From positions 171,436 to 235,435 of the forward strand of contig CAJMQN010000003.1 in NCBI GenBank assembly GCA_905215695.1: a DNA stretch of 64,000 bases, in the 5' to 3' direction. The DNA comes from an uncultured bacterium (GTDB taxonomy: Bacteria > Bacillota > Clostridia > Christensenellales > HGM11417). Within the stretch, counting starts at the first letter, position 1. The number at the start of each line of letters is the position of its first letter. This document shows positions 5,315 through 61,504 of the stretch, in pieces. The notes beneath the pieces were generated by a model. That model was given only the letters and a program-made list of their open reading frames with translations. It was not told the origin of the DNA and did not search any database. The position numbers were made by a program, and so were the translations under genes.

Positions 5315-5415
5315 AAAAACCTCCATACCTTTTTATTATACCATTTCTCATCTTCGGTTTCAAGCAAAAATCCAACGCCCGCTCGCAAGCGTCGTTGGAT
5401 TTTATCATATACTAT

Positions 5416-5530
5416 GAAAAAGTACACCTTGATGTACATTCTATTTTATTCCATTTTATGCAACAATTTTACCATAATGTGGCAATTTTTGGCAAGTGTT
5501 TTTTGTTCGGAAAAGTGTACCTTTCCGAAC
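5416..5530 (+). promoter_or_regulatory. Pair of near-palindromic motif copies (GAAAAAGTACACCTT at 5416; GTTCGGAAAAGTGTACCTTTCCGAAC at 5505) in the leader of SipW locus 1
   Basis: Same motif pair, in the same inverted orientation, is seen at 29804/29897 and 43356/43446. Centre-to-centre spacing here is 93 bp. Confidence 0.45.
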
Positions 5531-5595
5531 GGTTTCAGACGCCGTTTCCCCGATGAGCGGCGTTTTGGAATAAAAACAAATTGTGGAGGATTGCT

Positions 5596-6138
5596 ATGAA
5601 AAGGAATATCAGAATCGCATCGACGATCACGACGATGCTGCTCGTTGTCGCAATCATGTGCGTGGGAATCTTCGCCGCGACGCAGATCAGTGTCACGGGA
5701 AACGGCACGCTGACCTTCAGCGCCCAAGACGTTTACGCGACGGTGACCGTTGACAATCAGGAGGCGGGGGAAGGCGTGACAGAGGGCGTCAGAACTTGGA
5801 CGTTCGACAAGGACACCGCTCCCGGCGAATCGGCAACCGAGTCATTGACCTTTTCGCCGATTTCCGTTGACCCGACGACCCGCACCGCGACGGTAAAGGT
5901 GACGGTGAAAAACGATTTCTCGGCGGACAGCGGCATCGGCATTTCCGCGGCGCTTTCCGTGACTTCGAATGACACGGAACTCGTGACGGTCTCGGGCGCG
6001 GAGACGGCGACCGTTGCGCAAGGGGCGACGAAGGAATTTACGGTGACGTTCACGCTGACGGACAAGGCGGTCGAAGCGGGGCTTGGAGAGGGTGTGACCT
6101 TTGCTTTTTCGCTGACGCTGACAAGGGCGGCGGCGTAA
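5596..6138 (+). CDS. Small secreted beta-rich protein, putative SipW substrate
   Basis: GGAGG then ATG 5596. N-terminal K/R + hydrophobic segment (MKRNIRIASTITTMLLVVAIMCVGIFAATQISVTG), then a T/V/S-rich sequence. Immediately upstream of a SipW-type peptidase gene. Confidence 0.6.
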   Translation: MKRNIRIASTITTMLLVVAIMCVGIFAATQISVTGNGTLTFSAQDVYATVTVDNQEAGEGVTEGVRTWTFDKDTAPGESATESLTFSPISVDPTTRTATVKVTVKNDFSADSGIGISAALSVTSNDTELVTVSGAETATVAQGATKEFTVTFTLTDKAVEAGLGEGVTFAFSLTLTRAAA

Positions 6139-6145
6139 TCCCCAT

Positions 6146-7213
6146 ATGAAGGAAGAGCGGAGCAGAGTCAAACGGGCGCTCGGCGTCGCGGGGGACGCGG
6201 TCTTTGCGCTCGTGCTGCTCTTCTGTATCTGCGCTGCGGCGGTGCTTCTCTGCCTGCGCGGTGAGGGACTCGCCGGGGCAAAGCTCGGGATTGTGCAGTC
6301 TCGGAGCATGGAACCCGGCTTACGTGTCGGGGACGTCGTGCGCGTCCTTCGGGAGGGCGAGTATGCGCGCGGGCAAATCATCGTGTTTTACCGCGCGACG
6401 GATCTCTATGCGGGCGCGGCGGACGCTGCCGACCTCGGCAGCCGTCCCGTTTGGATTCATGAAATTATCGAGCGCAAAACATTGCCCGACGGTCGCATCG
6501 GCTATCTCACAAAGGGGAGCGCGAACGCGTCCGACGACGGCGCGTACGTGCCGCAGGATTTTGTGCTCGGCAGAGCCCTTCCGCTCTCTCCTTTTTGGAG
6601 CCGCGCTGTCGGTTTTGTCTCGTCGGTGAAGGGGATTGTTCTGCTCGTCCTCCTGCCCTGCGCGGTCATGCTCGTACTTCTGTCTCGGGAGCTTGTGTGT
6701 ATTCTGCTCGAACCGCCCGAGCGGACGTTTTACAGGAAATCCTTTACCGCCCGCTTGATTCTTGCGCCGACCGAGGTCAAGTCACGCTATCTCGCGGTCA
6801 AAAACGAATTGCTGTCCTATCGGGACTGCCGTGCGCGCACGAGTTGGAAGGCGGAGAGCTTTCGCGTGCGCGGCAAACCCTTTGCAAAACTAGATATCAG
6901 GGGCAGAACGCTCAAACTCTGCCTTGCGCTCCCGCCCGAACAGGCGGCGGAACGCAAGTACGGAATAGAGGACGGCTCCGCCCGTGCCGCGTTCCGCGAT
7001 TTTCCGAGTATCATGCGGATACGGAGCGCCCGAGCGGTCAACTATGCGAAACAGCTGATTACCCTCGCCGCCCTCTTTCATGGCTTTGAGCGGTCGGAAA
7101 ATCCTGCGCCCGCCCTCCTTCCTCCCGAGATGACGAGACGGCAGATGCTCCGCGCGGGTCTGCTCAGGCGGACAACGATGCGGAGACCCTTTCCCTCAAA
7201 GGAGCCGAGATGA
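6146..7213 (+). CDS. sipW: Signal peptidase I, SipW/ER-type (S26B), with ~165-aa C-terminal extension domain
   Basis: Catalytic-Ser box QSRSMEPGLRVGD and LTKGSANASDDG box. Second TM at aa ~160-187, then the extension FYRKSFTARL...RIRSARAVNYAKQLITLA. Confidence 0.8.
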   Translation: MKEERSRVKRALGVAGDAVFALVLLFCICAAAVLLCLRGEGLAGAKLGIVQSRSMEPGLRVGDVVRVLREGEYARGQIIVFYRATDLYAGAADAADLGSRPVWIHEIIERKTLPDGRIGYLTKGSANASDDGAYVPQDFVLGRALPLSPFWSRAVGFVSSVKGIVLLVLLPCAVMLVLLSRELVCILLEPPERTFYRKSFTARLILAPTEVKSRYLAVKNELLSYRDCRARTSWKAESFRVRGKPFAKLDIRGRTLKLCLALPPEQAAERKYGIEDGSARAAFRDFPSIMRIRSARAVNYAKQLITLAALFHGFERSENPAPALLPPEMTRRQMLRAGLLRRTTMRRPFPSKEPR

Positions 7214-8526
7214 AAAAATATCGAAAATTTGTCCTTGCGGGCAATCTGTGTCTCGTATGTCTGGCGTTTGCGGCGGTCGCGCCTATCGGACTGCGCGCGG
7301 CAAACCGGATTTTTCTGTCCGGCGGCGCGCAGATTGTCTATGAGAATACGGGCGAGGTGACCCGTCCCGACGATGAAACGCTCGCTGAACAAAAGGCGCA
7401 GCTCGAGAGCGCCGGACTTGTCGTGAGCGAGGACGGGACGGTCACTTTGCTCAACAATACGGGTTCGATGGGCGGCTCGGCGGAGCAGGTCAGGTCAATG
7501 CGGGAGGGACTCTTGACAAGCGGCATTCTCTCTTACTGCAAATACGAGGGCTCGGTCTGTACCGTCATGAACGAACTTGTCGCGATTCTCGATTTTTCGG
7601 GGTACTACATTCAGGCTTTTTCGGAGAACTGTCTGGACGGACTGAAGGACGCAATCTTCGGAAATTGGAGCGTGAGTTTTGACAATGTAACCGTCCCCGT
7701 CTATGATTCGGTGACGGGCGCGGCGCTCGCCCCGGTCACCGCAAGTTTTTCGCAGGGCGGCTATGTCATCGGCGGAACGCGCTCGGCGCGCTACTCTCTG
7801 CGCGTGGTTCTTCCGAACATCGGCGCGGAGGTGTTCATGTTCGGGGAGAACAGTCTCAATTTCCCCAACATGGGGGCGCCGACCAATCTCGCAATCGACA
7901 TTAGCAACCTCGCGCTGAAACGCGTGGACGGTAAAATATTGGGTATTGACCTGCATCCGTATGTGTTCGGCGCGGCGGCGTGGCAGAACGGTAAGCCGAA
8001 CCATATCCATTTTATCGGGAGCGAAGACAATCAGCTCGAATATGCGATGTCCGCATCGCTTTCGCAGTTGGATATCATCGACCTCGCTGTGCTCGGCGCG
8101 GATCTGAACGTCGAAATTTTTTCCAAGCCGCGAAAGGGCGAGGTGTTTACCCAACTCGCCGTGGGAATGACGAAGTCGAGAGGGGAGGGCGCTCTCACCC
8201 TTCGCGTGTACGACCTGCCCCATGACGAATTGTCGCCGGACAGGGATGCGGTGGGAATCTTGAATCTCGGGCATTGGTTCAAATACGTTTACGGGGAAAT
8301 TCCCGACGCTACCTTCGAGCATGTCCGGCGGGATTCGGAGAATCAGGTAAACACGGCGGACGTCGCCGAACTCACGTACGATTGGGAGGGCATCGACCAA
8401 AACGGTACCGTCACGCACCGCGCATACTGCCGGCACAGCGGCGAAGGGACGACGGGCGCGGAGATCGGTTGGTTCGAACGCGGTCAGCGTTTCTTCCGCC
8501 CGGACGGGACGCAGATTGTTCTGTAA
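7210..8526 (+). CDS. Secreted hypothetical protein (438 aa)
   Basis: ATGA overlap with the SipW stop. N-terminal signal-like MKKYRKFVLAGNLCLVCLAFAAVAPIG. No family recognised. Confidence 0.6.
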   Translation: MKKYRKFVLAGNLCLVCLAFAAVAPIGLRAANRIFLSGGAQIVYENTGEVTRPDDETLAEQKAQLESAGLVVSEDGTVTLLNNTGSMGGSAEQVRSMREGLLTSGILSYCKYEGSVCTVMNELVAILDFSGYYIQAFSENCLDGLKDAIFGNWSVSFDNVTVPVYDSVTGAALAPVTASFSQGGYVIGGTRSARYSLRVVLPNIGAEVFMFGENSLNFPNMGAPTNLAIDISNLALKRVDGKILGIDLHPYVFGAAAWQNGKPNHIHFIGSEDNQLEYAMSASLSQLDIIDLAVLGADLNVEIFSKPRKGEVFTQLAVGMTKSRGEGALTLRVYDLPHDELSPDRDAVGILNLGHWFKYVYGEIPDATFEHVRRDSENQVNTADVAELTYDWEGIDQNGTVTHRAYCRHSGEGTTGAEIGWFERGQRFFRPDGTQIVL

Positions 8527-15212: not shown

Positions 15213-15480
15213 GGCTGTAATATGCGGGGAGCCAGCGGTGCCCTGAACTTGCAATCCGCTATAGCAAGGCAGAATGCCGCTCGAGGCCTCGTGGGATGAA
15301 GGCAGTCCCGGATAAGGAACAGGGATCTTAAGGTCCCATGCAACAGACGACTTTGAACCGTGTCAGGGCAGGAATGCAGCAGCACTAAGGAGATCCGGCT
15401 GTGTGCCATGGGGTTACTTTAAGGGAGTCACCTACCCGGCAAACGCTTTGGCTCACGTTGTCGAAAGCGGCTTTACAGCA
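15213..15480 (+). ncRNA. ffs: Signal recognition particle RNA, long Bacillus-type (with Alu domain)
   Basis: GCGGGGAGCCAGCGGUGCCCUGAACUUGCAAUCCGCUAUAGCAAGG closely matches the B. subtilis scRNA Alu-domain sequence as I recall it. Domain IV-like GUCAGGGCAGGAAUGCAGCAGCA. The 5' GCUGUAA pairs with the 3' UUACAGC. Own promoter and terminator. Confidence 0.85.
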
Positions 15481-22378: not shown

Positions 22379-22399
22379 ATGTCTTGTCAAACGTTCGGG

Positions 22400-22552
22400 T
22401 GCCTTCAGTGCTCCATCCCGCCCGACAGGGAGAGATGACAGTCATGAAGGTGTTGTCCCTCATGCCCAACGGAAAAACCTGTTTCGGCGGCGATTCCGTT
22501 TCGGCGGATATACCCTTTCCGCGTCCCGCGCCCCGAATGGCGCCTCTTTGGT
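22400..22552 (-). promoter_or_regulatory. Lysine riboswitch (L-box) controlling asd-dapA-dapB
   Basis: Minus strand contains AAAGAGGCGCC, CCGCCGAAAC (x2), GACUGUCAUC and GGAUGGAGCAC in the order of L-box conserved elements. Genomic context is lysine biosynthesis. Confidence 0.75.
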
Positions 22553-22591
22553 TCGCGTACTCATGTTATCCGCTCCTCTTACAGCGCTTTC

Positions 22592-43155: not shown

Positions 43156-43355
43156 GTCAGCGAAAAAAATAGTGGACGCGACAGGCACTTGGATTGCGAA
43201 TTCGGTCAATTTAATTCTTTCACAAGACAGCTATTTTTAATAATGGTAAAATAGTAAATACAATATTGCGATAAATAAGCACAATTCTTCATTCCATTTT
43301 TCGGGTGCAGTATTTATAATAGATACATAAGCCGGGAGGCGGTCTTGCCTTCGTA

Positions 43356-43469
43356 CGGAAAGGTACACCTTTCCGAAATAGACAATTACTATTAAAACAT
43401 GCTGTTTTCATTTGAAAACGGCGTGTTTTTTTATTTTCTCCGACCTTTGCAAAGGTGTACCTTTTCGAA
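43356..43469 (+). promoter_or_regulatory. Pair of motif copies in the leader of the phosphoesterase/ABC/surface-protein locus (CGGAAAGGTACACCTTTCCG at 43356; TTTGCAAAGGTGTACCTTTTCGAA at 43446)
   Basis: Centre spacing is 92 bp. The downstream copy centre is 27 nt before ATG 43485. A hairpin + U-tract (CTGTTTTC-attt-GAAAACGG..TTTTTTT, about 43401-43431) lies between the copies. Confidence 0.45.
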
Positions 43470-43484: not shown

Positions 43485-44594
43485 ATGGTAAAAAGAAAAT
43501 GGCTAGCAGCGGTTACCGCAGCAATTTTCTGTCTGTCGGCGGTGATGTTTGCCGCCTGCGGAGAAAAAGGGGAGAAACCCGGGGAAACTCCATACGAATA
43601 TGATTTTACCCTCGAACTGCCCGTCGGCGAGGTCGATATTCTCATTATGAATGACACGCAGGTCATCGATTCTTCGCAGGGACGGGAACTCTTCGGGGCG
43701 GATAAGACGAATTACACCCCCGATAAAATCGACGAACGGCTCTTCCGGTACATGGACGATGCCGTGGCGCAGGGTGACCCCGACCTGATTGTTTTGGGCG
43801 GGGACAATGTCTATGCGGATTTTGATTTTGACTTTTCAAATATAGATAAGTTTATCGCGAAGATGGAATCCTACGGAAAGCCTTGGATTACAGTATTCGG
43901 CAATCACGACCTGTATCCCTATCCGAATCACCCCACGCTGACAAATTCGCAGTACATTGACGAAGTGCTCAAAAAGTACGAGGCTGCCGAGCACTGTATG
44001 TTTCAGCGCACGGGTATTTCGGAATTGCGGTTCAACGAATATACGCTTGGCATCAAGCAGGATGGAAAATATACGCTCTCCCTCTTTTTTGTCGATACGG
44101 GGGACGCCTCTCGGGGCGGAATCGGAGTCACGGGCAAGCAGTGTACCTGGTTGGAGGAGACCTCGGCGAAAATTCAGAAGAGTTACGGCAACCTGCCCGC
44201 GCATGTCTATATGCACGTTGCGGTTCCCGCCTTTGTGGACAGTCTGGACGAGATGTACCCCGACGATTGGTACGCCGGCGGGATTCTCGGAAGCGAGAAC
44301 CTGCCCGCAAAGAACGGGGATTTCGGGCGAATCGACAACCTTTCGGAGCTTGGATCGTCCGCTTATGGGGAAAAATTCTTCGATATCTGTACGGAAAATC
44401 GGGTGACAAATATGTTCGCCGCGCACAATCACAAGGCGTCTTTTTCGGTACTTTACCGGGACGTCCGGCTCACGATGGGGCTCAAGACCGGCGAATATGA
44501 CAGCCATCTGCAAAATTTTCTCGGCGCTACGCGTGCGAGGATTTCGGAGGGAAGAACTACAGTCGAACATCTGTATTTTTCGGGAAACAACTGA
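43485..44594 (+). CDS. Calcineurin-like metallophosphoesterase lipoprotein
   Basis: GAAGGAGG then ATG 43485. Lipobox VMFAACG. GDNVY, GNHD and AHNH phosphoesterase blocks. Confidence 0.8.
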   Translation: MVKRKWLAAVTAAIFCLSAVMFAACGEKGEKPGETPYEYDFTLELPVGEVDILIMNDTQVIDSSQGRELFGADKTNYTPDKIDERLFRYMDDAVAQGDPDLIVLGGDNVYADFDFDFSNIDKFIAKMESYGKPWITVFGNHDLYPYPNHPTLTNSQYIDEVLKKYEAAEHCMFQRTGISELRFNEYTLGIKQDGKYTLSLFFVDTGDASRGGIGVTGKQCTWLEETSAKIQKSYGNLPAHVYMHVAVPAFVDSLDEMYPDDWYAGGILGSENLPAKNGDFGRIDNLSELGSSAYGEKFFDICTENRVTNMFAAHNHKASFSVLYRDVRLTMGLKTGEYDSHLQNFLGATRARISEGRTTVEHLYFSGNN

Positions 44595-44627
44595 AACCGT
44601 AAATTTGTATCATAAGGAGGATTTGAT

Positions 44628-46133
44628 ATGAGAAAATTTTGGGGCATTGTGCTTGGAGCAATTCTCGCCTGTTCCGCGTTTGCGTGCGGCGGCGGTGGGG
44701 GCAACGTCATGCATACCGCGACGGTCGATGACATGAACGGCAGATTGGGGAAAAACGCCGCCGACCTCGTCGTCACCTTCGAAAATTCGGGATTCGGCGC
44801 GCAGTGGATCGTTGACCTCAAGAACAAATTTCAGACCGCGACGGGAAAGACCGTCTATCTCGAGGGTGAGAAGGGCATCAGCGGCTTTGCTCCGACCCGT
44901 TGGGAGACGGGCAACGACTGTTCGGACGTCTTCTTTATCGACAACGGGCACAGCTGTATTCAGCAGATTGCGCAGGGCTGGGTGGAGGACATCTCGGACG
45001 TTCTCGAGACAGAGGTGGAAAACGGCAAGACGGTCGAGGACCTGCTCTACACGAGTTTTAAGGATTACGGAAGAGTCACGACGGCGACCTATGACGGTTA
45101 CTATTATCTGCCCTGGACAGCCGGAGTCGGAAGTTTCTTCTATAACGCCGAAATTCTCGAGACTGCGGGATGGAGCGACCCGCCCGAAACCTACGCCGAA
45201 CTTCTCGAACTGGTAGCGGACATCAACAATCTTGCCGTCAATAAGGACGGCGACACGTCGAATGACATTCAGCCCTTTGTGTGGTCCACGAAGAGCGCGA
45301 GCTATTGGCAGTTTATCGTGGAGACCTGGTTTGTGCAGTTGGTCGGCAAGGAGAATTATGCCGAGTACGAAAAGATGGAGAATCTCGACTTCTTCGACCC
45401 CGAAAAGACCTGGACAAATCCCGAGACGGGAGAACAGGTGAATTTTGCGGCGAAGAAACGGGAGGCGCTCACCCTTCTCGAGGGACTCATTGTCGATCCC
45501 GCGACAAAGGACATCATCAACACCTCAAAGACGGACAGTTCAAAGGACTATGTTTTTGTACAGTCCGCGTTTGCGGAGGGAAAAGCCGCGATGATTCCCA
45601 ACGGCGCGTGGTTGGAGCGGGAGCTCGCGAACGGCGGTATCCCCGAGGAACAGCTCGAGCACATGCGGGTCATGAGCGTGCCCTTTGCGCCCAATGCCAA
45701 AAAGGACGGCGCGGGGGAGTATATCAAGGTCAACAACACGCTTGCCTACAACTACTGCATGATTCCCGAGAAGGCGGCGCACAAGGAACTCGCAAAGGAA
45801 TTTATCGTCTTCTCCTTGACGCAGGACAATCTCAAGTCCTTTACCTACGAATCCTACGGATTCCGCCCCTATGAATACGAAATCAACAAGGCGTCGCTCT
45901 CCTTCTGCGCGCAGGACATCCGCACCATTCTGACAGAGGCGGAGGCTTCGGGCGGGAACTTTACCTTCAACCCGAAGAGCGAACTCGCGTTTACCGGAGT
46001 CGCGAGCATGTGGTACTACAATCCTTTCAGCAATATGCTGACCGGGTCTCGGGACAGCCGAAAGAGCGCCGCCGAGTGCATTTCGCTCGAAAAGGATTCC
46101 GCAACCTCTATCTGGCAGTCCTATCTGTCCTGA
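44628..46133 (+). CDS. ABC sugar-binding lipoprotein (CUT1-type SBP)
   Basis: Lipobox AFACGGGGG. About 500-aa SBP-like sequence directly upstream of a permease gene. Confidence 0.75.
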   Translation: MRKFWGIVLGAILACSAFACGGGGGNVMHTATVDDMNGRLGKNAADLVVTFENSGFGAQWIVDLKNKFQTATGKTVYLEGEKGISGFAPTRWETGNDCSDVFFIDNGHSCIQQIAQGWVEDISDVLETEVENGKTVEDLLYTSFKDYGRVTTATYDGYYYLPWTAGVGSFFYNAEILETAGWSDPPETYAELLELVADINNLAVNKDGDTSNDIQPFVWSTKSASYWQFIVETWFVQLVGKENYAEYEKMENLDFFDPEKTWTNPETGEQVNFAAKKREALTLLEGLIVDPATKDIINTSKTDSSKDYVFVQSAFAEGKAAMIPNGAWLERELANGGIPEEQLEHMRVMSVPFAPNAKKDGAGEYIKVNNTLAYNYCMIPEKAAHKELAKEFIVFSLTQDNLKSFTYESYGFRPYEYEINKASLSFCAQDIRTILTEAEASGGNFTFNPKSELAFTGVASMWYYNPFSNMLTGSRDSRKSAAECISLEKDSATSIWQSYLS

Positions 46134-46136
46134 CCC

Positions 46137-47318
46137 ATGGAGAAAATCGAAAACGCCGTTTCGGCGTCCGTTCAGAACCCTTCCAAAAAGAAGAAGAGCC
46201 TGCTGCGGAGCAATAAGTTGTTTGTCTTTCTCATGCTCGCCTGGCCGACGGTGCACTTTTTGGTGTTCTGGGTTTATATCTACACCGATACGATCTGGCT
46301 CTCCTTTCACACCCTGCGTTCCACAGGGTATGAGTTCTTCGGCGCGCAGAACTTCGTCAACTTCTTCAACGAAATCGGAAGAGGGGATTCCACGCTCTAC
46401 TACGGAATTGTCAACTCGATCAAGCTGTTTTTCTTCAACGTCATCATCATCATTCCGCTCTCGGTGTTCGTCGCCTACTGTTTCTTTAAAAAGATTGCGG
46501 GATACCGGGCGTTCCGGGTCATCTATTTTCTCCCCAACGTCATTTCGGTCGTCATTATGACCATGGTGTTCCGGTGGGCGTTCGACCTCGACATCGGTTT
46601 TATGAACCGCATTCTCGGGGCGGTCGGGATTTCACAGCCCGAACTCGGCTTTTTCGGAGAGGACAACAGCTTTAACATGATTATGCTGTACAGTCTTTGG
46701 GTGGGCATCGGCTACTATGTCGTGATTCTCACTCTTGTCGGCGTGCTCGTGCCCTTGCAGACTTCCTATGTGGTCGCACAGTATCGGTTTAAACTGCGGA
46801 AAGTCTATTATGCGGTCGCGATCATGACCATTTCCGTTCCCGTGGTGGGCGGACTTGCCTCCATGATCATTCTGCTCACCAAACTCAAGCTGTTTGGCAC
46901 TTACGTCGGCATTTACGTCATGGGCGCGTCAGGGTTTGGCGGGTCGTTTCTGCTCTTTTATTCCTTCTTTCGGAGCATGTCCTGGTCCTACGCGGAGTCC
47001 GCTTTCATCGACGGGGCGGGGCATTTCCGGGTGTTTGTCTCTATCAATCTGCCGATGGCGGTGCCTATCATCGTTTCGGTAATGATTCTGTCCTTTCTCG
47101 CGTCCTGGAACGACTACTTCAACGTCTATATGTACGCAAAGGGCAGACCTACGCTCGCCGTGGGTATCCAATTCCTCGGCGAAATGATGATGTCTCAAAA
47201 CCGTTATCCCGAATTGTTTGCTTTCATGATGGTTTCCATGGTTCCCGGGCTCGTCATCTTCGGGGTCTTTCAGCGGACTATCATGGGCAACGTCTCGATA
47301 GGAGGTCTCAAGGGTTAG
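46137..47318 (+). CDS. Chimeric CUT1 ABC permease (MalF/LplB-like N-terminal ~200 aa joined in frame to MalG/LplC-like C-terminal ~190 aa)
   Basis: The N-part runs to ...NMIMLYSLWVGIGYYVVIL, just before the expected EAA loop. The C-part starts near ...TSYVVAQYRFKLRK and carries the only EAA motif, ESAFIDGAGHFRVFVSINLP. No second permease gene is present. Confidence 0.6.
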   Translation: MEKIENAVSASVQNPSKKKKSLLRSNKLFVFLMLAWPTVHFLVFWVYIYTDTIWLSFHTLRSTGYEFFGAQNFVNFFNEIGRGDSTLYYGIVNSIKLFFFNVIIIIPLSVFVAYCFFKKIAGYRAFRVIYFLPNVISVVIMTMVFRWAFDLDIGFMNRILGAVGISQPELGFFGEDNSFNMIMLYSLWVGIGYYVVILTLVGVLVPLQTSYVVAQYRFKLRKVYYAVAIMTISVPVVGGLASMIILLTKLKLFGTYVGIYVMGASGFGGSFLLFYSFFRSMSWSYAESAFIDGAGHFRVFVSINLPMAVPIIVSVMILSFLASWNDYFNVYMYAKGRPTLAVGIQFLGEMMMSQNRYPELFAFMMVSMVPGLVIFGVFQRTIMGNVSIGGLKG

Positions 47319-47319
47319 T

Positions 47320-48741
47320 ATGAAAAAATGTTATCGGTTTTTGGCGGCGGCGCTCTTTCTTGTGCTGCTCGCGACAGTGGGGTGTAATATGAATGAGGAC
47401 AAGGAAATCAATTTTGACAAACAGGCGAACGCGGAGGGTGTTCCCGTCTATCACAGCGAAGAGGAGTTTACGCTCGGCGCCTGGTACAGCCCGGACGCCA
47501 AAGAGGAGCTTTGGAGATGGCTCAAGGAGTCCAATCTCAATGAGGTGACAATCTTTCCCGCGAATATTCAGAGTGAAGAATATCTGAAAGCCGCGCTTGG
47601 GTATTGCAGGCAGTTTGGTATTCGCGCGCACGTCTATCTCATGAACACGCAGAAACTTTGGGGGAAGGATTGGACCGAACTTCTGGAGGGGTACGGGGAC
47701 GTAATCAATGGCTTTGACGTTTGGGACGAACCCAATCTCGAATCCGACCTTTCCTCCCTTCCGACGCGCCCGGACCTCGAGGACCTCCTGCCGAATATCG
47801 AGTATGTGCTCGAGAATTTCCCGGGGACGCGAATCACGAATACGCTTTGGCCGAACTATGCGACGGACGCGATGATCGGGCTTGCGGACGGGGAGACGTA
47901 CGAGGACTATGTAAAGGCGTACTGCGAACGCATTGTAGAGGAACTTCCCGCGGGAGCGGAGCGCTGGGTGGGGACGGATTTCTATCCCTACTACGTCGAA
48001 AGGTTTGACGGCGGACTGCTCTCCAATCTTGAGGTGTTGCAGCACTACGGCAAGGAAGTCGGCGCGGACGTCTATCTCTATATTCAGACCATGAATTCGC
48101 ACAAACTCAACTGGCGCAAGCCCAACCGCGCCGAACTGAGTTTGCAGTACTATACCGCGCTCTCCTACGGCGTCAAGAACATTCAGATGTTCTGCTATCA
48201 GCAGCCCAAACAGCAGGGCGCGGGGGAGTACGGCTATGAGGACGGCGAGGCGATGATTACGGACGGTTTTACCACGCGCTGGGACGACGACGGCAATCTC
48301 CTGCCCGCGAGCTACGAGCGTACCCAAATCTATTATGACGTTCAGTCCCTAAACGCGGAGGTCCTCAAAATGTCGGAGGCGTACATGGATTTTGAGTGGA
48401 AGGGAGTATTGACCGTGTTCGGAACCAAAAATCGGGTTCGGGACGACTTTTCCAAACTCAAATATACGCTCGAATCCTTTGACGGGCTTGCGTCCTGCAC
48501 TTCGGAGGAGAATATGATTGTCGGATGTTTCCGGGACGGGGAGAACAACGACGGCTATCTCGTCACGAATTACGGAAATCCGGTCGATTTGCGGGATTCG
48601 CGGGTGGACCTCGATTTCGGTGACCGCACCCGCGCGATTGTCTATAAGGGCAGCGAGAGGTATCTCGTCAATCTCATCGGCGGGCACTATATCACGACGC
48701 TTTCGGGTGGCGAAGGACACTTCGTCGTACCGGTGGCATAA
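47320..48741 (+). CDS. Lipoprotein, possible TIM-barrel glycoside-hydrolase-like
   Basis: Lipobox LLATVGC. INGFDVWDEPN resembles acid/base motifs of clan GH-A enzymes. Family not recognised. Confidence 0.5.
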   Translation: MKKCYRFLAAALFLVLLATVGCNMNEDKEINFDKQANAEGVPVYHSEEEFTLGAWYSPDAKEELWRWLKESNLNEVTIFPANIQSEEYLKAALGYCRQFGIRAHVYLMNTQKLWGKDWTELLEGYGDVINGFDVWDEPNLESDLSSLPTRPDLEDLLPNIEYVLENFPGTRITNTLWPNYATDAMIGLADGETYEDYVKAYCERIVEELPAGAERWVGTDFYPYYVERFDGGLLSNLEVLQHYGKEVGADVYLYIQTMNSHKLNWRKPNRAELSLQYYTALSYGVKNIQMFCYQQPKQQGAGEYGYEDGEAMITDGFTTRWDDDGNLLPASYERTQIYYDVQSLNAEVLKMSEAYMDFEWKGVLTVFGTKNRVRDDFSKLKYTLESFDGLASCTSEENMIVGCFRDGENNDGYLVTNYGNPVDLRDSRVDLDFGDRTRAIVYKGSERYLVNLIGGHYITTLSGGEGHFVVPVA

Positions 48742-48761
48742 ATTTACGGGGAGGAATTTGT

Positions 48762-51700
48762 ATGGGAAACAGAACTTTTTCAAAGAGGCTTGCGGTGGCT
48801 TTGCTTGCGCTCGTCGCCGCAGTGTGCTTTGCGCTCGGCGCGGGCTTTGCCCTCGGAAGGGCGCCCGCCGCGCGCGCGGAAGCGCTTTCCGTTGCGTCGG
48901 TGGAGATTGCGGAAGCGGAAAATTATATCGAACAACCGGCTTTTCCGAGCGCATACCTGCTGACAATGTTTTTTAAGGACGTTTCGGGTACTTCGCTTGC
49001 AATCGATAAGAACGCAGAGATGGGAGATTTTGCCTCAAAGATAACGGTGAACGATAAGAGCGCGACGGAATTCGGGCTTGCAAATGCCGGAGAGGGGAAA
49101 AGCGGACTGTTCGAGCAAAAAACTGCGGACGGCGCGACGACGATTACCATCGGGTTTTTGAAAAAGGGTTGGTCCACTTACGGGGACTGGGCAACATTTC
49201 TCGAGAGCAACGGGGAGCCGCTGACCTTGAAAATTCCCGCGCAGACGACCTTTTACAATTTCACCTTTGAATCGGATATTTTGCTCTACTTCTACGAGGG
49301 AAAGTGGCACAAGGAACTGCCCGCGCCGCTGGTAACGACGGAAGCCGCGAGCTTTGCGCTCGGCAACGGAGCGGGGCAGAACCACGGGCTTGTGGGCACG
49401 GATTCGCGCAGGCTTCTCGTCTATGCCTGGCCCGCAGGTTCGACGAACGGGATCAAGCTCGACTATCGGTTCGAGGAGGGGGATTTCTTCTCCAAAATTT
49501 TGCTCGACGGAGAACCTACGGACAAATTTTCCTTCCGAAAGACGGGGGGACATTCGGCGGACGGCGCTTCGCCTATTGACTTCGCCTACGCGGAGGACGA
49601 AACTTTTTGGGGCGTCGATGCGCGCAACTATCGCACGCTGACAGTGCCCGCGGGTACGACCTTCTATAATATCGTGTTTGCGAACGAGATTTCTCTCTAC
49701 TTCTACAGCGGAGAATGGCACGCCGCCGCGCCCGCTGCCGCCGCCACAGCGGACGGCTATGCAATCAACGTCAACAACAATCACCTTGTTTCCGGGGACG
49801 AATATTATTTTATCCTTGTTCTGAAGAACGGAGAGAACGAGGTCGGAATCAGCACTTCCTTCCCCGAAGAGGGAAATTTCGGAACGACTGCCACCTTGAA
49901 CGAAGAGGCGCTCTCCGAATACGGGTTCGGGCTGTCCTCAAAGACCGCGGACAATTCGACGCTTGTCTATTTCTCCTATGACAAGGCAAAATGGGACGCC
50001 GCCGCAGCGGAAGGGATGATTACGCTGAAGATTCCGGAGGGAACAACACTCAAAAATATTACGTTTGCCGCGGAGCTTACCCTTTTCTTCTACAACGGTA
50101 TGTGGATGAATGCGCCCATGCAGGTGTCGCCCGCTTCCTATCAGCAGGCGACGGGAATTTCCGTTCATCCCACGGTCAATCACGGCAATACCGTCGGGGG
50201 AAAGGGACTTATCTTCTATGCGGTCGGAGTAAACGGAAATCTGACGAGCGACAGGACGTATCCGCTCGGGGACTTCTTCGACGCCCTCGAGTGGGACGGC
50301 GGGGACAATCCTGGGTTTGCGCTCAATTTCCGGGGCGGCAATATGGTTTCGAACCTTGAATTTGCCAAACAGGGCACTCTTTTGGATATGGTCTATACCG
50401 AGACGGCGTCCTTCGACGCCGCGTCCCCCGCGTATCGGACGCTCACCGTTCCGCAGGGGACGAAACTCTATGACATCGAATTTGCAGAGGAAGTCAAGCT
50501 CTATTTTTACGACGGAAAATGGAATCTTGAGACACCCTATGACCCGGAGACAGACCTATTCTCCAATCCGGTAAGCCTGCTGATTGAACCCGGCGTCAAC
50601 CATATCAATAGCGGTGGAAAGATGACCCTCGTGTTCTATGCGGAGCAGGCGCCCGGAAAAAATATTTCGCTTCAGACGAAGTATCCCGCGGGGGATTTCT
50701 TTGAAAGAATTACGCTGAACGGAGAGCCTACCGAAAAGTTCTCTTTGCGGCTCAACTATCACGGCGGAAACGGAAAGACCCCCATTGATATTGTCTATGA
50801 CCCCGACGACGTTTTCTGGGCGGCGACGGAGGACGCTTTCCATACTTTGAAGATTCCCGCGGGGGCAAAACTCTACAATGTCGAATTTGCCGAGGAGTTC
50901 AATTTCTACTTCTTTGGAGGCAAATGGCAGCTTCAAAAGCCCGTGCCTGTCGGAGAGCGCGAGTATATCGACATCAACGGATATGCAATCAATTATCTAT
51001 ACAACCATGCTTTGACCGGGACGCGGCGGGATTTGATTCTTCACTTCTACCGCAATTCGGAGTCGGAGGATAAGGTCGCGGTTGCTTTTGACCAAGCTTA
51101 TCCCAAGGGGGATTTCGAGACAAAAATAGCCTTCTATGACAGCGAAGGAAAGCGGATTGAGAGCACCGGACTCGCCGTCGGCTGGGACAAGGGACACATG
51201 ACGCCCGGCTCTAGTGCTGTGCATTTCTGCTATGACGACAATGCCGAGCTTTGGGCAAAAACTGTCAAAGACTTTGTGGAACTGCGTATCGATATGGGGG
51301 CGGAACTCTTCAACCTCAAGATGAACAAGGAGTTCAGTCTGTATTTCTTCAACGGAAAATGGCAGACCAATCGCCCGATTACCGACTACGAAATCGACGA
51401 GGAAAATCTTGACCACTTCACAATCGGCGAACTGGTTGAGGTCAAACCCGCCAAGAAATCCACCTTCCTCATGGGGCAGGACGGTGACCCCGGCGTTGTG
51501 GCGGGAACGCTGACTTCGCCGCTGCTCAATTCCAAGGCTTACGTTCTCGAATTCGATATGAAGATTACGACCGACACCTATTATTTCACCTTCGCGCTGA
51601 ACGGTTCGGGCGGAAATCTTTGGCAGGCAATCAATCTCTTGTTTATCAACAAGAGCGAAACTTTGCGCGGGGTTTCCTATCTCGATTATATCAATCCCGA

Positions 51701-52613
51701 GGGACATTTGCCGGACTATCTCATCAACGACTACTGGTTTGAGAAAGACGTCAAATACAACGTCAAGATTCTTGTTGCGACAGATGTGGAGGGCCGCGGC
51801 GCGCTCCTGCGGCTCACGGTGGACGACATTGTTTGGGGAGAATTGTTCATTCCCGTCAACGAGGGCTATCAGATGTCCGAACTTATGGGCAACGGATTTG
51901 TGCTCTGTGTCAACGACGGTACGGGCGCTTATTTCGGAGCGGCGGAGTTCACGAACATCGATACCAACCCGCCCGCTATATCTTTGAACGGCGATGCGGT
52001 CATCGAGTCCGGCGCGACGGCGGAAGGGTTCGCATATCCGGTTACCGTTTCGGACGGCATTGACGGTATTGTCGAATATACTGCGGAAATCATCAGCGGC
52101 GCGCTCTCGGCGGAGGGAAAATTTGTGGAAAATACGAGTTATGTCGTGCGCTTTACCGCAAGAGACGCCGCCGGGAATACCGGGACGAAGGAGATCACTT
52201 TCCTGTGCAAATACGATGTGACGCCCCCTGAAATTACCTTCGGAGAGAACGTGACGGACGGCGCGGTCAACGCCGCGGTGGGGATTTCGCAGGAGGAACT
52301 GCTCGCTCTCATCGGCGCTGCGGCGACGGACAACAAGTCCTCGAACGTGACGCTGACCTATTCCTTCCCCGAGGGCATGTTCGCGGAGGGAAAACTGCTG
52401 GAGGGAAGATTCCGCGTCGAGTTTACCGCGAAGGACGAGAGCGGAAACGAGACCGTCCTGCGCGTTCGCGTGATCGCGACGGAACAGACCGCTCCGCCCG
52501 AAAAGGGGGGATGCGGCGGATGCGGAAGCATCGGGTTCGGCGGGTTCGGGGGGCTCGGACTCCTGCTTTTCGCCGGGCACTGCGCGGTGGGAGTCCGCAA
52601 GCGGAAGGCTTAA
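48762..52613 (+). CDS. Large cell-surface protein (1283 aa): signal peptide, six ~140-aa tandem repeats, lectin/Ig-like region, Gly/Cys-rich C-terminal anchor
   Basis: N-terminal signal RLAVALLALVAAVCFALGAG. Each repeat ends TL(K/T)(I/V)P.G..(F/L)YN..F..E..LYF(Y/F).G(K/E)W. C-terminus GGCGGCGSIGFGGFGGLGLLLFAGHCAVGVRKRKA. Confidence 0.85.
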   Translation: MGNRTFSKRLAVALLALVAAVCFALGAGFALGRAPAARAEALSVASVEIAEAENYIEQPAFPSAYLLTMFFKDVSGTSLAIDKNAEMGDFASKITVNDKSATEFGLANAGEGKSGLFEQKTADGATTITIGFLKKGWSTYGDWATFLESNGEPLTLKIPAQTTFYNFTFESDILLYFYEGKWHKELPAPLVTTEAASFALGNGAGQNHGLVGTDSRRLLVYAWPAGSTNGIKLDYRFEEGDFFSKILLDGEPTDKFSFRKTGGHSADGASPIDFAYAEDETFWGVDARNYRTLTVPAGTTFYNIVFANEISLYFYSGEWHAAAPAAAATADGYAINVNNNHLVSGDEYYFILVLKNGENEVGISTSFPEEGNFGTTATLNEEALSEYGFGLSSKTADNSTLVYFSYDKAKWDAAAAEGMITLKIPEGTTLKNITFAAELTLFFYNGMWMNAPMQVSPASYQQATGISVHPTVNHGNTVGGKGLIFYAVGVNGNLTSDRTYPLGDFFDALEWDGGDNPGFALNFRGGNMVSNLEFAKQGTLLDMVYTETASFDAASPAYRTLTVPQGTKLYDIEFAEEVKLYFYDGKWNLETPYDPETDLFSNPVSLLIEPGVNHINSGGKMTLVFYAEQAPGKNISLQTKYPAGDFFERITLNGEPTEKFSLRLNYHGGNGKTPIDIVYDPDDVFWAATEDAFHTLKIPAGAKLYNVEFAEEFNFYFFGGKWQLQKPVPVGEREYIDINGYAINYLYNHALTGTRRDLILHFYRNSESEDKVAVAFDQAYPKGDFETKIAFYDSEGKRIESTGLAVGWDKGHMTPGSSAVHFCYDDNAELWAKTVKDFVELRIDMGAELFNLKMNKEFSLYFFNGKWQTNRPITDYEIDEENLDHFTIGELVEVKPAKKSTFLMGQDGDPGVVAGTLTSPLLNSKAYVLEFDMKITTDTYYFTFALNGSGGNLWQAINLLFINKSETLRGVSYLDYINPEGHLPDYLINDYWFEKDVKYNVKILVATDVEGRGALLRLTVDDIVWGELFIPVNEGYQMSELMGNGFVLCVNDGTGAYFGAAEFTNIDTNPPAISLNGDAVIESGATAEGFAYPVTVSDGIDGIVEYTAEIISGALSAEGKFVENTSYVVRFTARDAAGNTGTKEITFLCKYDVTPPEITFGENVTDGAVNAAVGISQEELLALIGAAATDNKSSNVTLTYSFPEGMFAEGKLLEGRFRVEFTAKDESGNETVLRVRVIATEQTAPPEKGGCGGCGSIGFGGFGGLGLLLFAGHCAVGVRKRKA
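48882..51375 (+). repeat. Six tandem coding repeats (~410-440 nt period) inside the surface-protein gene
   Basis: Repeat-end motifs YFYEGKWH (~49290), YFYSGEWH (~49700), FFYNGMWM (~50085), YFYDGKWN (~50500), YFFGGKWQ (~50900), YFFNGKWQ (~51345). Each also has a GDF(F)..I.L.GEPT.KFS block. Confidence 0.8.
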
Positions 52614-56909: not shown

Positions 56910-58844
56910 ATGTTTGAAATTAAGGACAGACAGGTGCATATGGACTTTCATCTCTCGGGAGAGGTGCCGGACGTCGGCGCCAATTTCGACGAGGAACGCT
57001 TTGTGAGGCGGCTCAAAGAGAGCCATGTAAATGCCGTTACCGTATTTGCGAAATGTCACCATGGCTATTTTTACTATTTCGATTCCGAATTTACGGTTCA
57101 TCCCAATCTCAAGACGGACCTTTTGCCTCGGCAGCTCGACGCCTGTGAAAGAGCGGGGATCGAGACTGCGGTATATATCTCTGCGGGATTCGACGAAGTG
57201 CTGGCAGAATAGCATCACGACTGGGTCTATCGGGGTCGGGACGGTTCAACGGCTCGGGCGGTTTCTTTTGAATCGGACGGCTATCATTTTATGTGTTTCA
57301 ATACGCCTTATCTTGATGTGCTGTGCGCGCAGACCGAAGAGGTCATGAAGAAGTTTATGCCCAACGAAGTCTTTTTTGATATCTGCAATGTCAGACCTTG
57401 TTTTTGCGAATTTTGCAGAGCGGAACGGCAGCGAGAGGGAGTCGGAGAGGACGACGCGGCGGTGCTTGCGCATGCCGAACGGGTGTATGCCGAATTCTGT
57501 CGGCGCACGACCGAAGCGGTGCGCAAGTACAGTGCGACCTGCCGTATCTTCTACAACGGCGGACACTTCTTCCGGGGGCGCAGGGACCTTGCGGGATACA
57601 ACACGCACTATGAAATCGAGTCTCTTCCCACGGGTGGCTGGGGATACGATCATTTTCCCCTCACCGTCAATTATCTTGAAAAACTGGGCGGCGAATATCT
57701 CGGGATGACGGGGAAATTCAATACGACCTGGGCGGAATTCGGCGGTTATAAGCATAGAAACGCACTGTTGTATGAGGCGGGACTTTTCCTTTGTTACGGG
57801 GCGAAATGTTCGATCGGAGACCAAATCAACTTTGACGGGACTTTGGACGACTACACCTATGACTTGATCGGTTACGCCTACCGCCATGTTGAACGGTTTG
57901 GAAAATATGTGTATCCAAGCGTAAAGCGGACCGAAATCGGCGTTTTTTCGGTAGAGGCTTTTACCGGAGAATACACGCCGGCAACGGACCTTGGCGTTGT
58001 CAAAATTTTGTTGCGGGGCAAGTATCAGTTTGATTTTTTGGACAGAGATTCTGTGCTTGACGATTATAAGGTTCTCATTCTTCCGGACCGAATTGTGCCC
58101 GATGAAAAGCTCGAGGCGCGTATCCGACAATTTACGGACAGGGGCGGCAAACTGCTCCTGACGGGAGAGTCCGGGGTTCGGGAAGGACGATTCCTTTTTG
58201 ACATCGGCGCAGAATGGGTAGGCAAAGAAGAGTTGATTCCAAGTTATCTGGAAGGGGAGAGCCTCACCGGTTATAAAGCGCATAACGTCATTTATTCGGA
58301 CAGCTATCGAATTGCCTGTACCGGAGAGGAACTGGGGAAGAAGTATTTGCCTCTTCAAAACCGCGAGGGGAGGCATTTCTGTGCGCACCAGCACTGGCCC
58401 GAAAACCCAAAGAAAAACGTTCCCGGTATCACGGAGGGCAGGGAGGGAATTTATCTCTGCTGGAAAGTGTTTGAGGATTTTGCGAATTTTGCGCCCTGCG
58501 TCGTGCGGGAGACGATAGACAAGATTCTTGACAGGTTGCTCGGGCGCAGACTTGCAGAGTCCAGTCTGCCCGTTCAGGCACTCCTGACTCTACGGCATCA
58601 GCCCGGGCGGGAAATCTTGCAGGCGCTATATGGCGTTCCATATCAGGCGGGCGGAAATTTACAGGTTATAGATGATATTCCCGCGCTGTATGATACTCGT
58701 TTTTCTGTCGCAGTCGAGCAGAAGGTTCGGCGCGTCCTGGATACTGTAGAGGGAAAAGAACTGCCTTTTGAAGAGCGCGAGGGGAGAGTAGAGTTCAGTC
58801 TGCCCAAATTTTGGTGTCATTCTGTTGTGTTGATTGAATATTGA
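56910..58844 (+). pseudogene. GHL6/beta-galactosidase-trimerisation-type glycoside-hydrolase-like gene interrupted by one in-frame TAG (57210-57212)
   Basis: ORFs 56871..57212 and 57291..58844 are in the same frame. Sequence similarity reads through the stop: ...SAGFDEVLAE*HHDWVYRGRDG...YHFMCFNTPYLD. Confidence 0.65.
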
Positions 58845-60466
58845 TATGAAAAGTTGAGCGCCGTACTCTGTACGGCGCTTTTTAATAAATACGGATGGAC
58901 TTTTCTTATATCGGGAACATAACATGTTTTATTGGAAGAAAGAGAAATTGGCGCAACGACAAAAATATATAAAACAGACCAAAATCGTTCGATTTTGGTC
59001 TGTTTTGGCGCACCGAGGCATTTAATATCCGAATTTTTCGCCGCTTCAATATCGGAAAGATAGACCGTCTGCGTTCCGTCCTTGAAGTTTAAGGTTAAGG
59101 TTACTTTATCGTCAAACAAATAGATTGAATTTATAAAACCGTCTATTAGCCGTCGCTTGCCGTCCTGCGTGGTGATGTCCAACTTTCTAAACTTCTCTAT
59201 TCCGAAACGTATCTGGTCTTTCGTAAGGAAAGGCTTTTTTATTCTCTCCTGCAAAATAGTGATTTCAAGTTCTTTCTTCTTGCTCTCCAACTGCGCAAGC
59301 CTGTCCTTCGTGCTATCCGTAATAATGCCCTGCTCTATCGCATCCATTACGTTGGAAATTCGCTTTTCCGTTTCGTCAAGCTGTTCTTTTAAGCGAGGGA
59401 TTCTCGGATTCTCTTCCCCCTGCAACACGTAAATTCTGTCTGTGAGATAATCTACGAGCTTTTCGTCGTGCAGAATTTCCATAGCCTTTTTAACGACTAA
59501 ATCTTCTATCCATTCCTTGCGGACGGCTTTCTTGTCGCAAATGTGGACTCTCTTGGTATTGGCGCATTTATAGTAATGATAAACCTTTGAAGTTCCCATT
59601 CCGCTTTCGCCTACCATATGCGCACCGCACTTGCCGCAAAAGAGTTTTAGCGTAAGCAGATAATCGTCCTCGGCTTTATGCCTTGCAGGAGCTTTCTTAT
59701 TCTTAATCAGCTTTTTCTGCACCCGTTCAAACAACTCGTCCGAAACGAGAGAGGGAATACAATGCGGCACGACCACTTCACGGAATTTGTATTCCCCGAT
59801 ATATCTGCGGTTGGAGAGAATGCGCTGTACGCTGTTAATGTTCAGTTTGCCGCCACGATAGGAACGGATGCCCTTTTTATCGAGATAATCGACGATTTGC
59901 TTAACCGTCTTTCCATCGGCATACATAGTAAAGATTTCTTCCACGATAGGTGCGGTGGTTTCGTTCGGTTCAAACTTGCGTTCAGCGTTCAGCTTATAGC
60001 CGAAAGTAACCTGACCACCGTTGTTTATGCCTTTCAACGTGTTTTCCTTCATACCACGCACAACCTTTTCGGCAAGTTCTGCGGAGTAGTACTCCGCCAT
60101 GCCTTCGAGAACGCTTTCCAACAATATACCTTCCGAGCCTTCGGATATGCTCTCCATAGCGGAGACAACCTTAACGCCGTTTTTGCGGAGCAAGGCTTTA
60201 TAGTGTGCGCTGTCGTAGCGGTTACGGGAGAACCTGTCCAACTTCCACACGATAATGCAATCGAAAGCGTGCTTATAGCTGTCCTTAATCATACGCTGAA
60301 ATTCAGGACGATTATCAGATTTAGCGGACAAAGCTCTATCTATGTAGTTGCCGATAACGTCAATTTCGGCACGGCTTGCAAACTCCATACACTCACGGAG
60401 CTGCCCTTCGATACTTTCTTCTCTTTGGTTGTCCGAACTGTACCTCGCATAAATTACGGCTTTCAT
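58817..60466 (-). CDS. Large serine recombinase (resolvase/invertase N-domain + recombinase + zinc-ribbon domains)
   Basis: MKAVIYARYSSDNQREESIEGQ (catalytic Ser region), VWKLDRFSRN, zinc ribbon CGKCGAHM...YYKCAN. The last ~25 codons run into host-like high-G+C DNA and overlap the host gene end. Confidence 0.9.
   Translation of the reverse strand: MKAVIYARYSSDNQREESIEGQLRECMEFASRAEIDVIGNYIDRALSAKSDNRPEFQRMIKDSYKHAFDCIIVWKLDRFSRNRYDSAHYKALLRKNGVKVVSAMESISEGSEGILLESVLEGMAEYYSAELAEKVVRGMKENTLKGINNGGQVTFGYKLNAERKFEPNETTAPIVEEIFTMYADGKTVKQIVDYLDKKGIRSYRGGKLNINSVQRILSNRRYIGEYKFREVVVPHCIPSLVSDELFERVQKKLIKNKKAPARHKAEDDYLLTLKLFCGKCGAHMVGESGMGTSKVYHYYKCANTKRVHICDKKAVRKEWIEDLVVKKAMEILHDEKLVDYLTDRIYVLQGEENPRIPRLKEQLDETEKRISNVMDAIEQGIITDSTKDRLAQLESKKKELEITILQERIKKPFLTKDQIRFGIEKFRKLDITTQDGKRRLIDGFINSIYLFDDKVTLTLNFKDGTQTVYLSDIEAAKNSDIKCLGAPKQTKIERFWSVLYIFVVAPISLSSNKTCYVPDIRKVHPYLLKSAVQSTALNFSYQYSINTTE
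58857..58884 (+). terminator. Intrinsic terminator of the host glycan locus
   Basis: AGCGCCGTAC-tct-GTACGGCGCT followed by TTTT. Confidence 0.8.
58971..59006. repeat. Perfect 17-bp inverted repeat around a TT core, inside the recombinase 3' coding region
   Basis: AAAACAGACCAAAATCG-TT-CGATTTTGGTCTGTTTT. Confidence 0.9.
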
Positions 60467-60616
60467 AAATAATTCTCCTTGTGGGTATAGTATAACATAC
60501 TAAACCTGACAACTCTGTCATATATAAAAAATTATTTTGAATTTTCTATGGTTTATTATATAGCTCTAAACGAGCTAAGTCAATAATTTTAGCTCAATCC
60601 GTGGTATTATTTTGGT

Positions 60617-60820
60617 ATGATATTATTCAAAGAAAGACTTAAAGAGTTAAGGGTAGAAAGGAAGCTATCACAGGCAGACCTTGCAAAAGAGTTAAACGTC
60701 AGCCAAAGAAGTATAAGTAGTTGGGAAACGGGTTTCAGACAGCCTGACTTTGAAACGTTGGAACGTATTGCAAAATTTTTTGACGTAACGGCGGATTATC
60801 TTCTCGGCTTGGGTGACTAA
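60617..60820 (+). CDS. XRE-family HTH transcriptional regulator (67 aa)
   Basis: LKELRVERKLSQADLAKELNVSQRSISSWETG is a Cro/CI-type HTH. Divergent from the recombinase gene. Confidence 0.9.
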   Translation: MILFKERLKELRVERKLSQADLAKELNVSQRSISSWETGFRQPDFETLERIAKFFDVTADYLLGLGD

Positions 60821-60865
60821 GAATAATTTTTGCGCAAATTATACAAAACAAATGTTTATAAACTA

Positions 60866-60894
60866 TTGACAAGAGCATTATGATGTGTTATAAT
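60866..60894 (+). promoter_or_regulatory. Near-consensus promoter heading a ~600-nt ORF-free region
   Basis: TTGACA (60866-60871), 17-nt spacer, extended -10 TGtTATAAT (60886-60894). Confidence 0.7.
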
Positions 60895-61414: not shown

Positions 61415-61504
61415 TAAAGGTAAGCGTTTCGCTTAACCAAGTATCTTAAATACTTTTAAGCAAGAACAGCAAATCACAAATCAAACGTTAAAAGGAGAAC
61501 AAAA

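Follow-up and report, generated by a model that had tools for sequence, protein, structure and literature searches.

What are the near-palindromic motifs that stand, as inverted pairs, in front of three secretion and cell-surface operons of an uncultured Clostridia bacterium of the Christensenellales? The stretch analyzed here (the window) is 64,000 nucleotides long (GCA_905215695.1, contig CAJMQN010000003.1, positions 171,436 to 235,435), and a first-pass annotation made from its letters alone had offered two readings of the motif, either paired operators for a dimeric repressor or activator, or an RNA element whose copies form local hairpins or pair with each other over a distance. Our follow-up points to a different answer. 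With a probability that we put at about 85%, each motif pair bounds a DNA segment that works as an invertible switch (inverton), and a single small serine recombinase, whose gene lies elsewhere in the genome, very probably serves all three in trans.

All six sites lie where the first-pass annotation had placed them, and its hand-counted distances are correct: the copies are inverted in every pair and their centers are 93 bp (locus 1), 93 bp (locus 2), and 92 bp (locus 3) apart. The gene context was also essentially as described, with a SipW locus (locus 1), a SipW/TasA locus (locus 2), and a phosphoesterase/ABC/surface-protein locus (locus 3). Aligned as 24-mers, all six sites consist of an 11-bp arm, a central dinucleotide, and a second 11-bp arm (Table 1). 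Two inverted 11-bp copies of the half-site consensus T(T/A)CGGAAARGT surround an asymmetric dinucleotide, which is AC in the left site and GT in the right, such that each upstream copy reads ..ACAC.. and each downstream copy ..GTGT.., the inverted orientation. The more specific claim that every upstream copy is centered on GTACAC holds for loci 1 and 3 and fails for locus 2, where the center is TTACAC. Two inverted half-sites around an asymmetric central dinucleotide are the build of serine-recombinase crossover sites, and the same 11 + GT + 11 layout is found in at least 18 pairs from other genomes.

Against the consensus TTCGGAAARGTGTACYTTTCCGAA, five of the sites score 19–24 out of 24, while all other positions of the 64 kb stay below 18 (background maximum, 17). 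The 13-mer GGAAARGTGTACC, allowing up to 2 mismatches, has 8 matches in the window compared to 1.85 expected, and none of 100 shuffles reached 8. A chance or low-complexity motif is ruled out by the shuffles together with the score gap. Nothing comparable was found elsewhere in the window, as the first-pass annotation had also noted; the sole other core match (position 20958) has neither palindromic arms nor a partner. The upstream copy of locus 1 is weak, with a score of 17/24 that equals the best background, and can be told from the background only by the GTACAC at its core and by a perfect site lying 93 bp away. The G+C content is 28–32% in the segments that the paired sites enclose, versus 53% for the window as a whole.

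We compared the leaders of independent public metagenome assemblies that encode identical neighboring proteins with those of the window. At locus 2, the 212-bp leader matches the window in all ten assemblies except for a single block (29821–29899), and in eight of the ten this block is the exact reverse complement of the window sequence. At locus 3, the block 43373–43450 is exactly reverse-complemented in one of 11 assemblies (L022, SRR21977541). The crossovers fall inside the motif copies, within TACACTTTT (29812–29820) and AAAAGTGTA (29900–29908) at locus 2, and within AAAGGTACACCTTT (43359–43372) and its partner AAAGGTGTACCTTT (43451–43464) at locus 3. In both cases the flanks of the inverted block are identical, with no further change. 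Because exact reverse-complement segments with identical flanks occur in independent assemblies, we conclude that the pairs are the recombination sites of invertible switches.

Orientation is independent of strain background, because opposite states are found only 1–3 single-nucleotide polymorphisms (SNPs) apart in 1.2–4.5 kb of flank (e.g., L005, L010, and L022 versus the window), and the same state is common to strains that are 156 SNPs apart over 3642 positions (L002; ~4% divergence). Switching is recurrent and does not represent an old fixed inversion. Orientations also combine independently between samples: ERZ27252988 is predicted OFF at all three loci, and SRR21977541 is predicted ON at locus 3.

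We consider it very unlikely that the inversions are old fixed strain polymorphisms or assembly errors and the repeats relics rather than active switches. Such a view could draw on the use of consensus contigs, on the single orientation seen everywhere at locus 1, and on the one inverted assembly at locus 3, but it conflicts with the SNP distances above and with the presence of three loci that carry one site family at a conserved spacing, a family kept together with its recombinase across many genera (see below). As to assembly errors, the repeat common to both sites of a pair is only 9–14 bp, which we judge too short to confuse assemblers and shorter than any plausible assembler k-mer (the contig-name prefixes k127 and k141 suggest a k of ~127–141), and the same alternative allele recurs in many samples.

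The inversion junctions also bear on the two readings of the first-pass annotation, and we now regard it as extremely unlikely that the sites are operators bound by a dimeric transcription factor without any DNA rearrangement, or parts of an RNA leader with hairpins or inter-copy pairing. Near-palindromes between a promoter and a start codon are what such models would lead one to expect; furthermore, the outer four bases vary between lineages yet stay self-complementary, which fits a dimeric protein or an RNA stem, and the long-range complementarity is real. However, no transcription-factor or RNA model predicts exact reverse-complement junctions inside the sites, and the locus 1 pair flanks a promoter-like site instead of sitting in a transcribed leader. 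An RNA element is further contradicted by the physical inversion of the intervening DNA and by Rfam, which at gathering thresholds reports no family at the three leaders (its only matches in the window, a signal recognition particle (SRP) RNA and a lysine riboswitch, lie elsewhere). The hairpins and the long-range pairing follow automatically from the sites being inverted, palindromic recombination sites, and pairing that is present in both orientations cannot alone explain regulation. The operator proposal was right in one respect, as binding of a dimer to each site is very probable and the sites must meet by looping, but the bound protein is neither a repressor nor an activator, and the DNA inverts. 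The undescribed regulon suggested by the first-pass annotation stands insofar as one sequence-specific DNA-binding protein would co-control the three loci, but what they share are recombinase sites and not the targets of a new regulator. The system adds a new example to a well-known type of switch; neither a new regulator nor a new RNA element is involved.

Which enzyme would act on these sites is suggested by other genomes. We scanned one genome per species (596 Gb) for GGAAARGTGTACCTTTYC and obtained 66 matches, which by our own rough estimate is close to the number expected by chance; a signal comes solely from those matches that have an inverted partner and a recombinase next to them. Matches with a GTGTAC-core inverted partner 83–162 bp away come almost entirely from metagenome-assembled genomes (MAGs) of gut Clostridia, with one clear exception (L075, a Mailhella MAG), and the remaining matches have no credible partner. 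At 9 of the 18 paired loci, a protein of ~201 residues with a PF00239 resolvase domain is encoded within ~300 bp of the pair; in six such site-adjacent proteins, all from other genomes, the PF00239 matches have E values of 1e-26 to 1e-31. These recombinases are 53–56% identical across the divergent lineages compared; among relatives of solved structure, Sin/Bin3 come closest (E = 1.5e-29), followed by gamma-delta resolvase and Gin (E = 2e-16). In the reciprocal test, 25 of 80 metagenome loci picked solely for encoding the recombinase have a GTGTAC-core inverted pair 16–126 bp downstream, and a looser repeat search at recombinase loci found an inverted pair in 28 of 72. The sites thus travel with a recombinase gene and not with a regulator, a further argument against operators or an RNA leader. 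The recombinase-adjacent sites closest to the window arms were found at L149, which we considered as a candidate for this organism; its coding sequence looks AT-rich, so that it probably belongs to another organism.

A different enzyme could in principle invert the switches, either a tyrosine recombinase (as RecV does in C. difficile and FimB/E in E. coli) or the large serine recombinase of 549 residues encoded at 58817–60466, which is the sole recombinase found in the window. We consider this unlikely. Near-palindromic arms around an asymmetric core also fit tyrosine sites of the lox/FRT type, and the crossover zones of 9 and 14 bp could hold a spacer of 6–8 bp; in addition, no cognate small recombinase turned up in the DNA of this organism that was read. 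However, both crossover zones include the central dinucleotide, and locus 2 inverts although a 6-bp overlap centered on the axis would be heterologous there (TTACAC versus GTACAC). Because locus 2 flips despite this mismatch, a 2-bp serine-type overlap fits better than a tyrosine-type spacer. The co-location of sites and small serine recombinase genes in other genomes, found in both directions of search, likewise argues against another enzyme, and a motif screen of the site-bearing loci returned tyrosine-like signatures only at L092 and L095, both of which lack an inverted partner site. As for the large serine recombinase, its gene adjoins a Mob_Pre relaxase and DUF6291, and this context, with the relaxase on only 2 contigs versus 12–47 for neighboring genes, is typical of the integrase of a strain-specific mobile element.

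We therefore favor a small serine recombinase, and infer from the sites and their neighbors in other genomes that an enzyme of this kind probably acts in this organism and cleaves at the central GT. Its gene is presumably located elsewhere in the genome, with the product acting in trans, as in the Mpi system of Bacteroides fragilis (PMC4747536). Each site would be occupied by a dimer of the recombinase, synapsis would bring the paired sites together over a tight, AT-rich loop of ~93 bp, and a block of ~78 bp would be inverted by strand exchange at the central dinucleotide.

The distances between paired sites may reflect such a synapse. When the pairs of the window are taken together with the genome-scan matches and the recombinase loci (including L046–L093 and L107–L184), the center-to-center spacings cluster at 83, 92–93, 113–117, 124–128, 135–137, 146, 156, and 161–162 bp. 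The best period is ~10.5–11 bp (Rayleigh p ~2.5e-7, a value that is overstated since many of the loci are related). These steps suggest a helical-phase constraint on synapsis, under which paired sites have to face one another over a short loop, and a requirement of this kind would explain why the first-pass annotation found the copies always 92–93 bp apart.

Several observations weigh against our reading as a whole. A Pfam scan of ~50 open reading frames in the window revealed no small serine recombinase, nor was one found in the ~7.3 kb before its start or the 10 kb past its end. Compared to known serine invertases, a crossover spacing of 92–93 bp is very short, and how the sites would synapse is conjectural. 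For locus 1, 12 informative assemblies were obtained through three protein look-ups, all in the window orientation and none with an inverted allele, and a fourth look-up, with the first gene, returned no record; with its degenerate left site, this switch may be locked or decaying. The orientation evidence consists of consensus assemblies and not of reads, so that mixed orientations inside one population are not directly visible. Finally, the ON and OFF assignments are drawn only from promoter and terminator consensus scans and from folding energies.

Under these assignments, the three switches are predicted to carry different cargo, with locus 1 flipping a promoter and loci 2 and 3 flipping a one-directional terminator behind fixed promoters (Table 1). 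At locus 1, the promoter-like site of the segment would face away from the fiber operon in the window and into the terminator-like hairpin to its left, which would shield the TPR gene; a flip would aim it at the operon. Locus 1 is predicted to be OFF in the window. At locus 2, the promoter-like site is unchanged in both orientations, and the hairpin folds with −17.8 kcal/mol compared to −7.1 kcal/mol for the other strand. The terminator is antisense in the window, which would turn the operon ON, and sense in the inverted allele, which would turn it OFF; the window is thus predicted to carry the ON state. The locus 3 hairpin folds with −20.7 kcal/mol, versus −12.4 kcal/mol for the other strand, which has no U-run. 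Here the terminator is sense in the window (predicted OFF) and antisense in L022, where the operon would be ON. The commonest orientation is predicted OFF at all three loci, in 12 of 12, 8 of 10, and 10 of 11 assemblies for loci 1, 2, and 3, respectively, and a majority in the OFF state is typical of phase-variable surface structures.

Table 1. Recombination sites, predicted regulatory elements, and genes at the three loci (positions in the window).
Feature	Position	Strand	Description
Locus 1, promoter-like site of the TPR gene itself	5363 to 5335		leftward of the terminator-like hairpin
Locus 1, terminator-like hairpin	5394 to 5373	-	just left of inverton 1
Locus 1, left recombination site	5413-5436		degenerate, TATGAAAAAGT-AC-ACCTTGATGTA; center AC 5424-25
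Locus 1, invertible segment	5437-5505		69 bp between the sites, 28% G+C
Locus 1, promoter-like site inside the segment	5495 to 5466	-	TTGCCA-18-TAAAAT with upstream TG
Locus 1, right recombination site	5506-5529		perfect consensus (24/24), TTCGGAAAAGT-GT-ACCTTTCCGAA; center GT 5517-18
Operon 1	5587-8526	+	183-aa secreted protein, SipW-type signal peptidase (6146-7213), 438-aa protein
Locus 2, fixed promoter-like site	29762-29790	+	TTGACA-17-TAAAAT with TG, 11/12; outside and upstream of the switch
Locus 2, left recombination site	29802-29825		TACGGAAAATT-AC-ACTTTTTTAAA; center 29813-14
Locus 2, terminator cargo	29843-29877	- in the window	15-pair hairpin, then T-run; one-directional
Locus 2, right recombination site	29895-29918		TACGGAAAAGT-GT-ACAATATCGAA; center 29906-07
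Operon 2	29934-35904	+	Pro-rich membrane protein, SipW-substrate protein, SipW signal peptidase, two large TasA/camelysin-like proteins
SipW-dependent signal-peptide protein, locus 2	30572-31195		without Pfam match
SipW-type signal peptidase, locus 2	31158-31877		
SipW-dependent signal-peptide proteins, locus 2	31902-34577 and 34579-35904		weak camelysin/TasA (Peptidase_M73) matches
Locus 3, fixed promoter-like site	43224-43252	+	AAGACA-17-TAAAAT with TG, 9/12; upstream of the switch
Locus 3, left recombination site	43354-43377		TACGGAAAGGT-AC-ACCTTTCCGAA; center 43365-66
Locus 3, terminator cargo	43394-43439	+ in the window	16-pair hairpin with G-U pairs, then TTTTTTTATTTT; one-directional
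Locus 3, right recombination site	43446-43469		TTTGCAAAGGT-GT-ACCTTTTCGAA; center 43457-58
Operon 3	43485-52613	+	metallophosphoesterase, ABC solute-binding protein and permease, 473-aa protein, 1283-aa surface-type protein

The signal peptidase of operon 1 scores 48.5 bits against TIGR02228, slightly under the cut-off of 51.85. Between inverton 1 and the start codon (5535–5575), a GC-rich stem of 6 bp (ACGCCG...CGGCGT) closes a loop of 13 nt and precedes TTTTGG, an arrangement that could attenuate transcripts from the flipped promoter; its long loop kept the stem out of the matches of the terminator scan. At locus 3, one assembly (L017, SRR22877676) has lost ~16 bp (about CTATTTTTAATAATGG) spanning the spacer of the fixed promoter predicted there (window ~43230–43246). 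The deletion puts the −35-like AAGACA directly beside the −10-like TAAAAT and should inactivate the promoter in either state of the switch.

Related invertons elsewhere contain strong promoter-like sites (L046, L078, and L093) or terminator-like elements. In several of them, from rabbit-gut Clostridia MAGs (L063 3697–3811, L064 2896–3021, L065, L069, and L086) and also in L050, L052, and L089, a palindromic site is followed by a T-run on the invertible segment, the site hairpin having ~−12 kcal/mol and the run reading TTTTT. The site and the end of the segment may together form an orientation-dependent terminator there, like the junction terminator proposed for cwpV.

Among known systems, the Mpi-type segments of Bacteroides fragilis run to ~170–190 bp, compared to 92–93 bp here and 83–162 bp in the wider family. 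Mpi is the master serine invertase of that species and serves 13 invertible regions, seven of which are capsular-polysaccharide promoters (PMC4747536; originally Coyne et al. 2003). The likeness lies in a small serine recombinase that apparently acts in trans on dispersed short invertons of one inverted-repeat family, controlling surface structures in a gut commensal, with a recombinase gene that need not adjoin its targets. Differences concern the phylum, the sequence of the repeats, and the lineage of the recombinase (with Sin/Bin3 as the nearest solved relatives here), and two of the three switches described here flip a terminator instead of a promoter.

Inversion of the cwpV switch of Clostridioides difficile is catalyzed by RecV, a tyrosine recombinase. 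The switch has a fixed promoter upstream, an intrinsic terminator that is present only in the OFF transcript, and 21-bp imperfect repeats around 195 bp (PMC2784873). Loci 2 and 3 are predicted to be built similarly, with a fixed upstream promoter and a terminator that is sense in one orientation only, and further common features are the control of the clostridial cell surface, the position of the invertible element in the leader, and a recombinase gene that is not adjacent. However, the sites described here are of the serine type and their co-located enzymes are serine recombinases, so that these switches work alike without being members of the cwpV family. The terminator lies wholly within the segment here and at the repeat junction in cwpV, and locus 1 carries a promoter instead.

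The hix and gix sites of the Hin/Gin systems consist of two imperfect inverted half-sites of ~12 bp with an A-run around an asymmetric central dinucleotide, and inversion is dictated by how these dinucleotides are oriented relative to each other. The Hin, Gin, Cin, and Pin enzymes are resolvase-domain proteins of ~190–200 residues with a C-terminal DNA-binding end; they invert segments of ~1–4 kb and need a Fis-bound enhancer. The site layout and the enzyme size resemble those of the family described here, a comparison (drawn with hix) that we treat as a lead. In contrast, an interval of 93 bp leaves no obvious room for an enhancer, and the recombinase is closer to Sin/Bin3 than to Gin.

Short regulatory segments flanked by inverted repeats, located near surface genes and present in two orientations in metagenomes, are also what PhaseFinder-type inverton surveys of gut bacteria report (Jiang et al. 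2019; PMC11892184). Published repeat motifs come mainly from Bacteroidota and Akkermansia, and the Firmicutes_A group with the strongest link to a recombinase is tied to one of the tyrosine type (PMC11892184). In the text searched, no paper links sipW or tasA to invertible switches or gives the GTGTAC-core motif, although large inverton catalogs and supplementary tables may include such loci without naming them.

Invertible switches are a main route by which gut bacteria vary their surface against immunity, phages, and changes of niche, and the well-characterized ones come mostly from Bacteroidota and a few pathogens. The loci described here add the TasA/SipW-type fiber operons of a Clostridium-like gut bacterium, as yet uncultured, to the genes controlled in this way. 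They may be members of a family not described so far and found widely among gut Clostridia (Oscillospiraceae, Lachnospiraceae, Faecalibacterium, and relatives), a proposal that we advance tentatively and at somewhat less than even odds. The family would combine a Sin/Bin3-like invertase of ~201 residues with GTGTAC-core sites in unusually short, helically phased invertons of 83–162 bp that carry a promoter or a terminator, and in this bacterium one trans-acting enzyme would make two SipW/TasA-type fiber operons and a third surface locus independently phase-variable. A portable pair of site and recombinase that can be recognized from sequence could be used to annotate many more switches in Clostridia, and leaders of this kind should not be taken for operators or riboswitch candidates. 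With 24-bp sites and ~70 bp of cargo, either promoter or terminator, the system is compact enough to be a tractable model for serine-recombinase synapsis at less than 100 bp, and such switches might also serve as a small genetic memory part.

Some minor observations concern the rest of the window and the assemblies. Logan contigs of unrelated samples are nearly equal in size (6446 bp three times and 6100/6102 bp twice); one of 6446 bp (L013) ends near window positions 2645 and 9090, and the same breaks in the others would hint at variable or repeated sequence. The region 58817–63450, which contains the large serine recombinase and continues past the end of the window (L103), is probably an integrated mobilizable element, with genes for an ArsR-type helix-turn-helix protein/ArsP, a thioredoxin, a DsbD-like protein, and Fic lying beyond the window; the low contig count of its relaxase suggests that it is probably strain-specific. 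Finally, the large bacterial SRP RNA lies at 15215–15478 (+ strand, 172 bits), and the lysine riboswitch at 22398–22588 (− strand, 79 bits), upstream of minus-strand asd-dapA-dapB.

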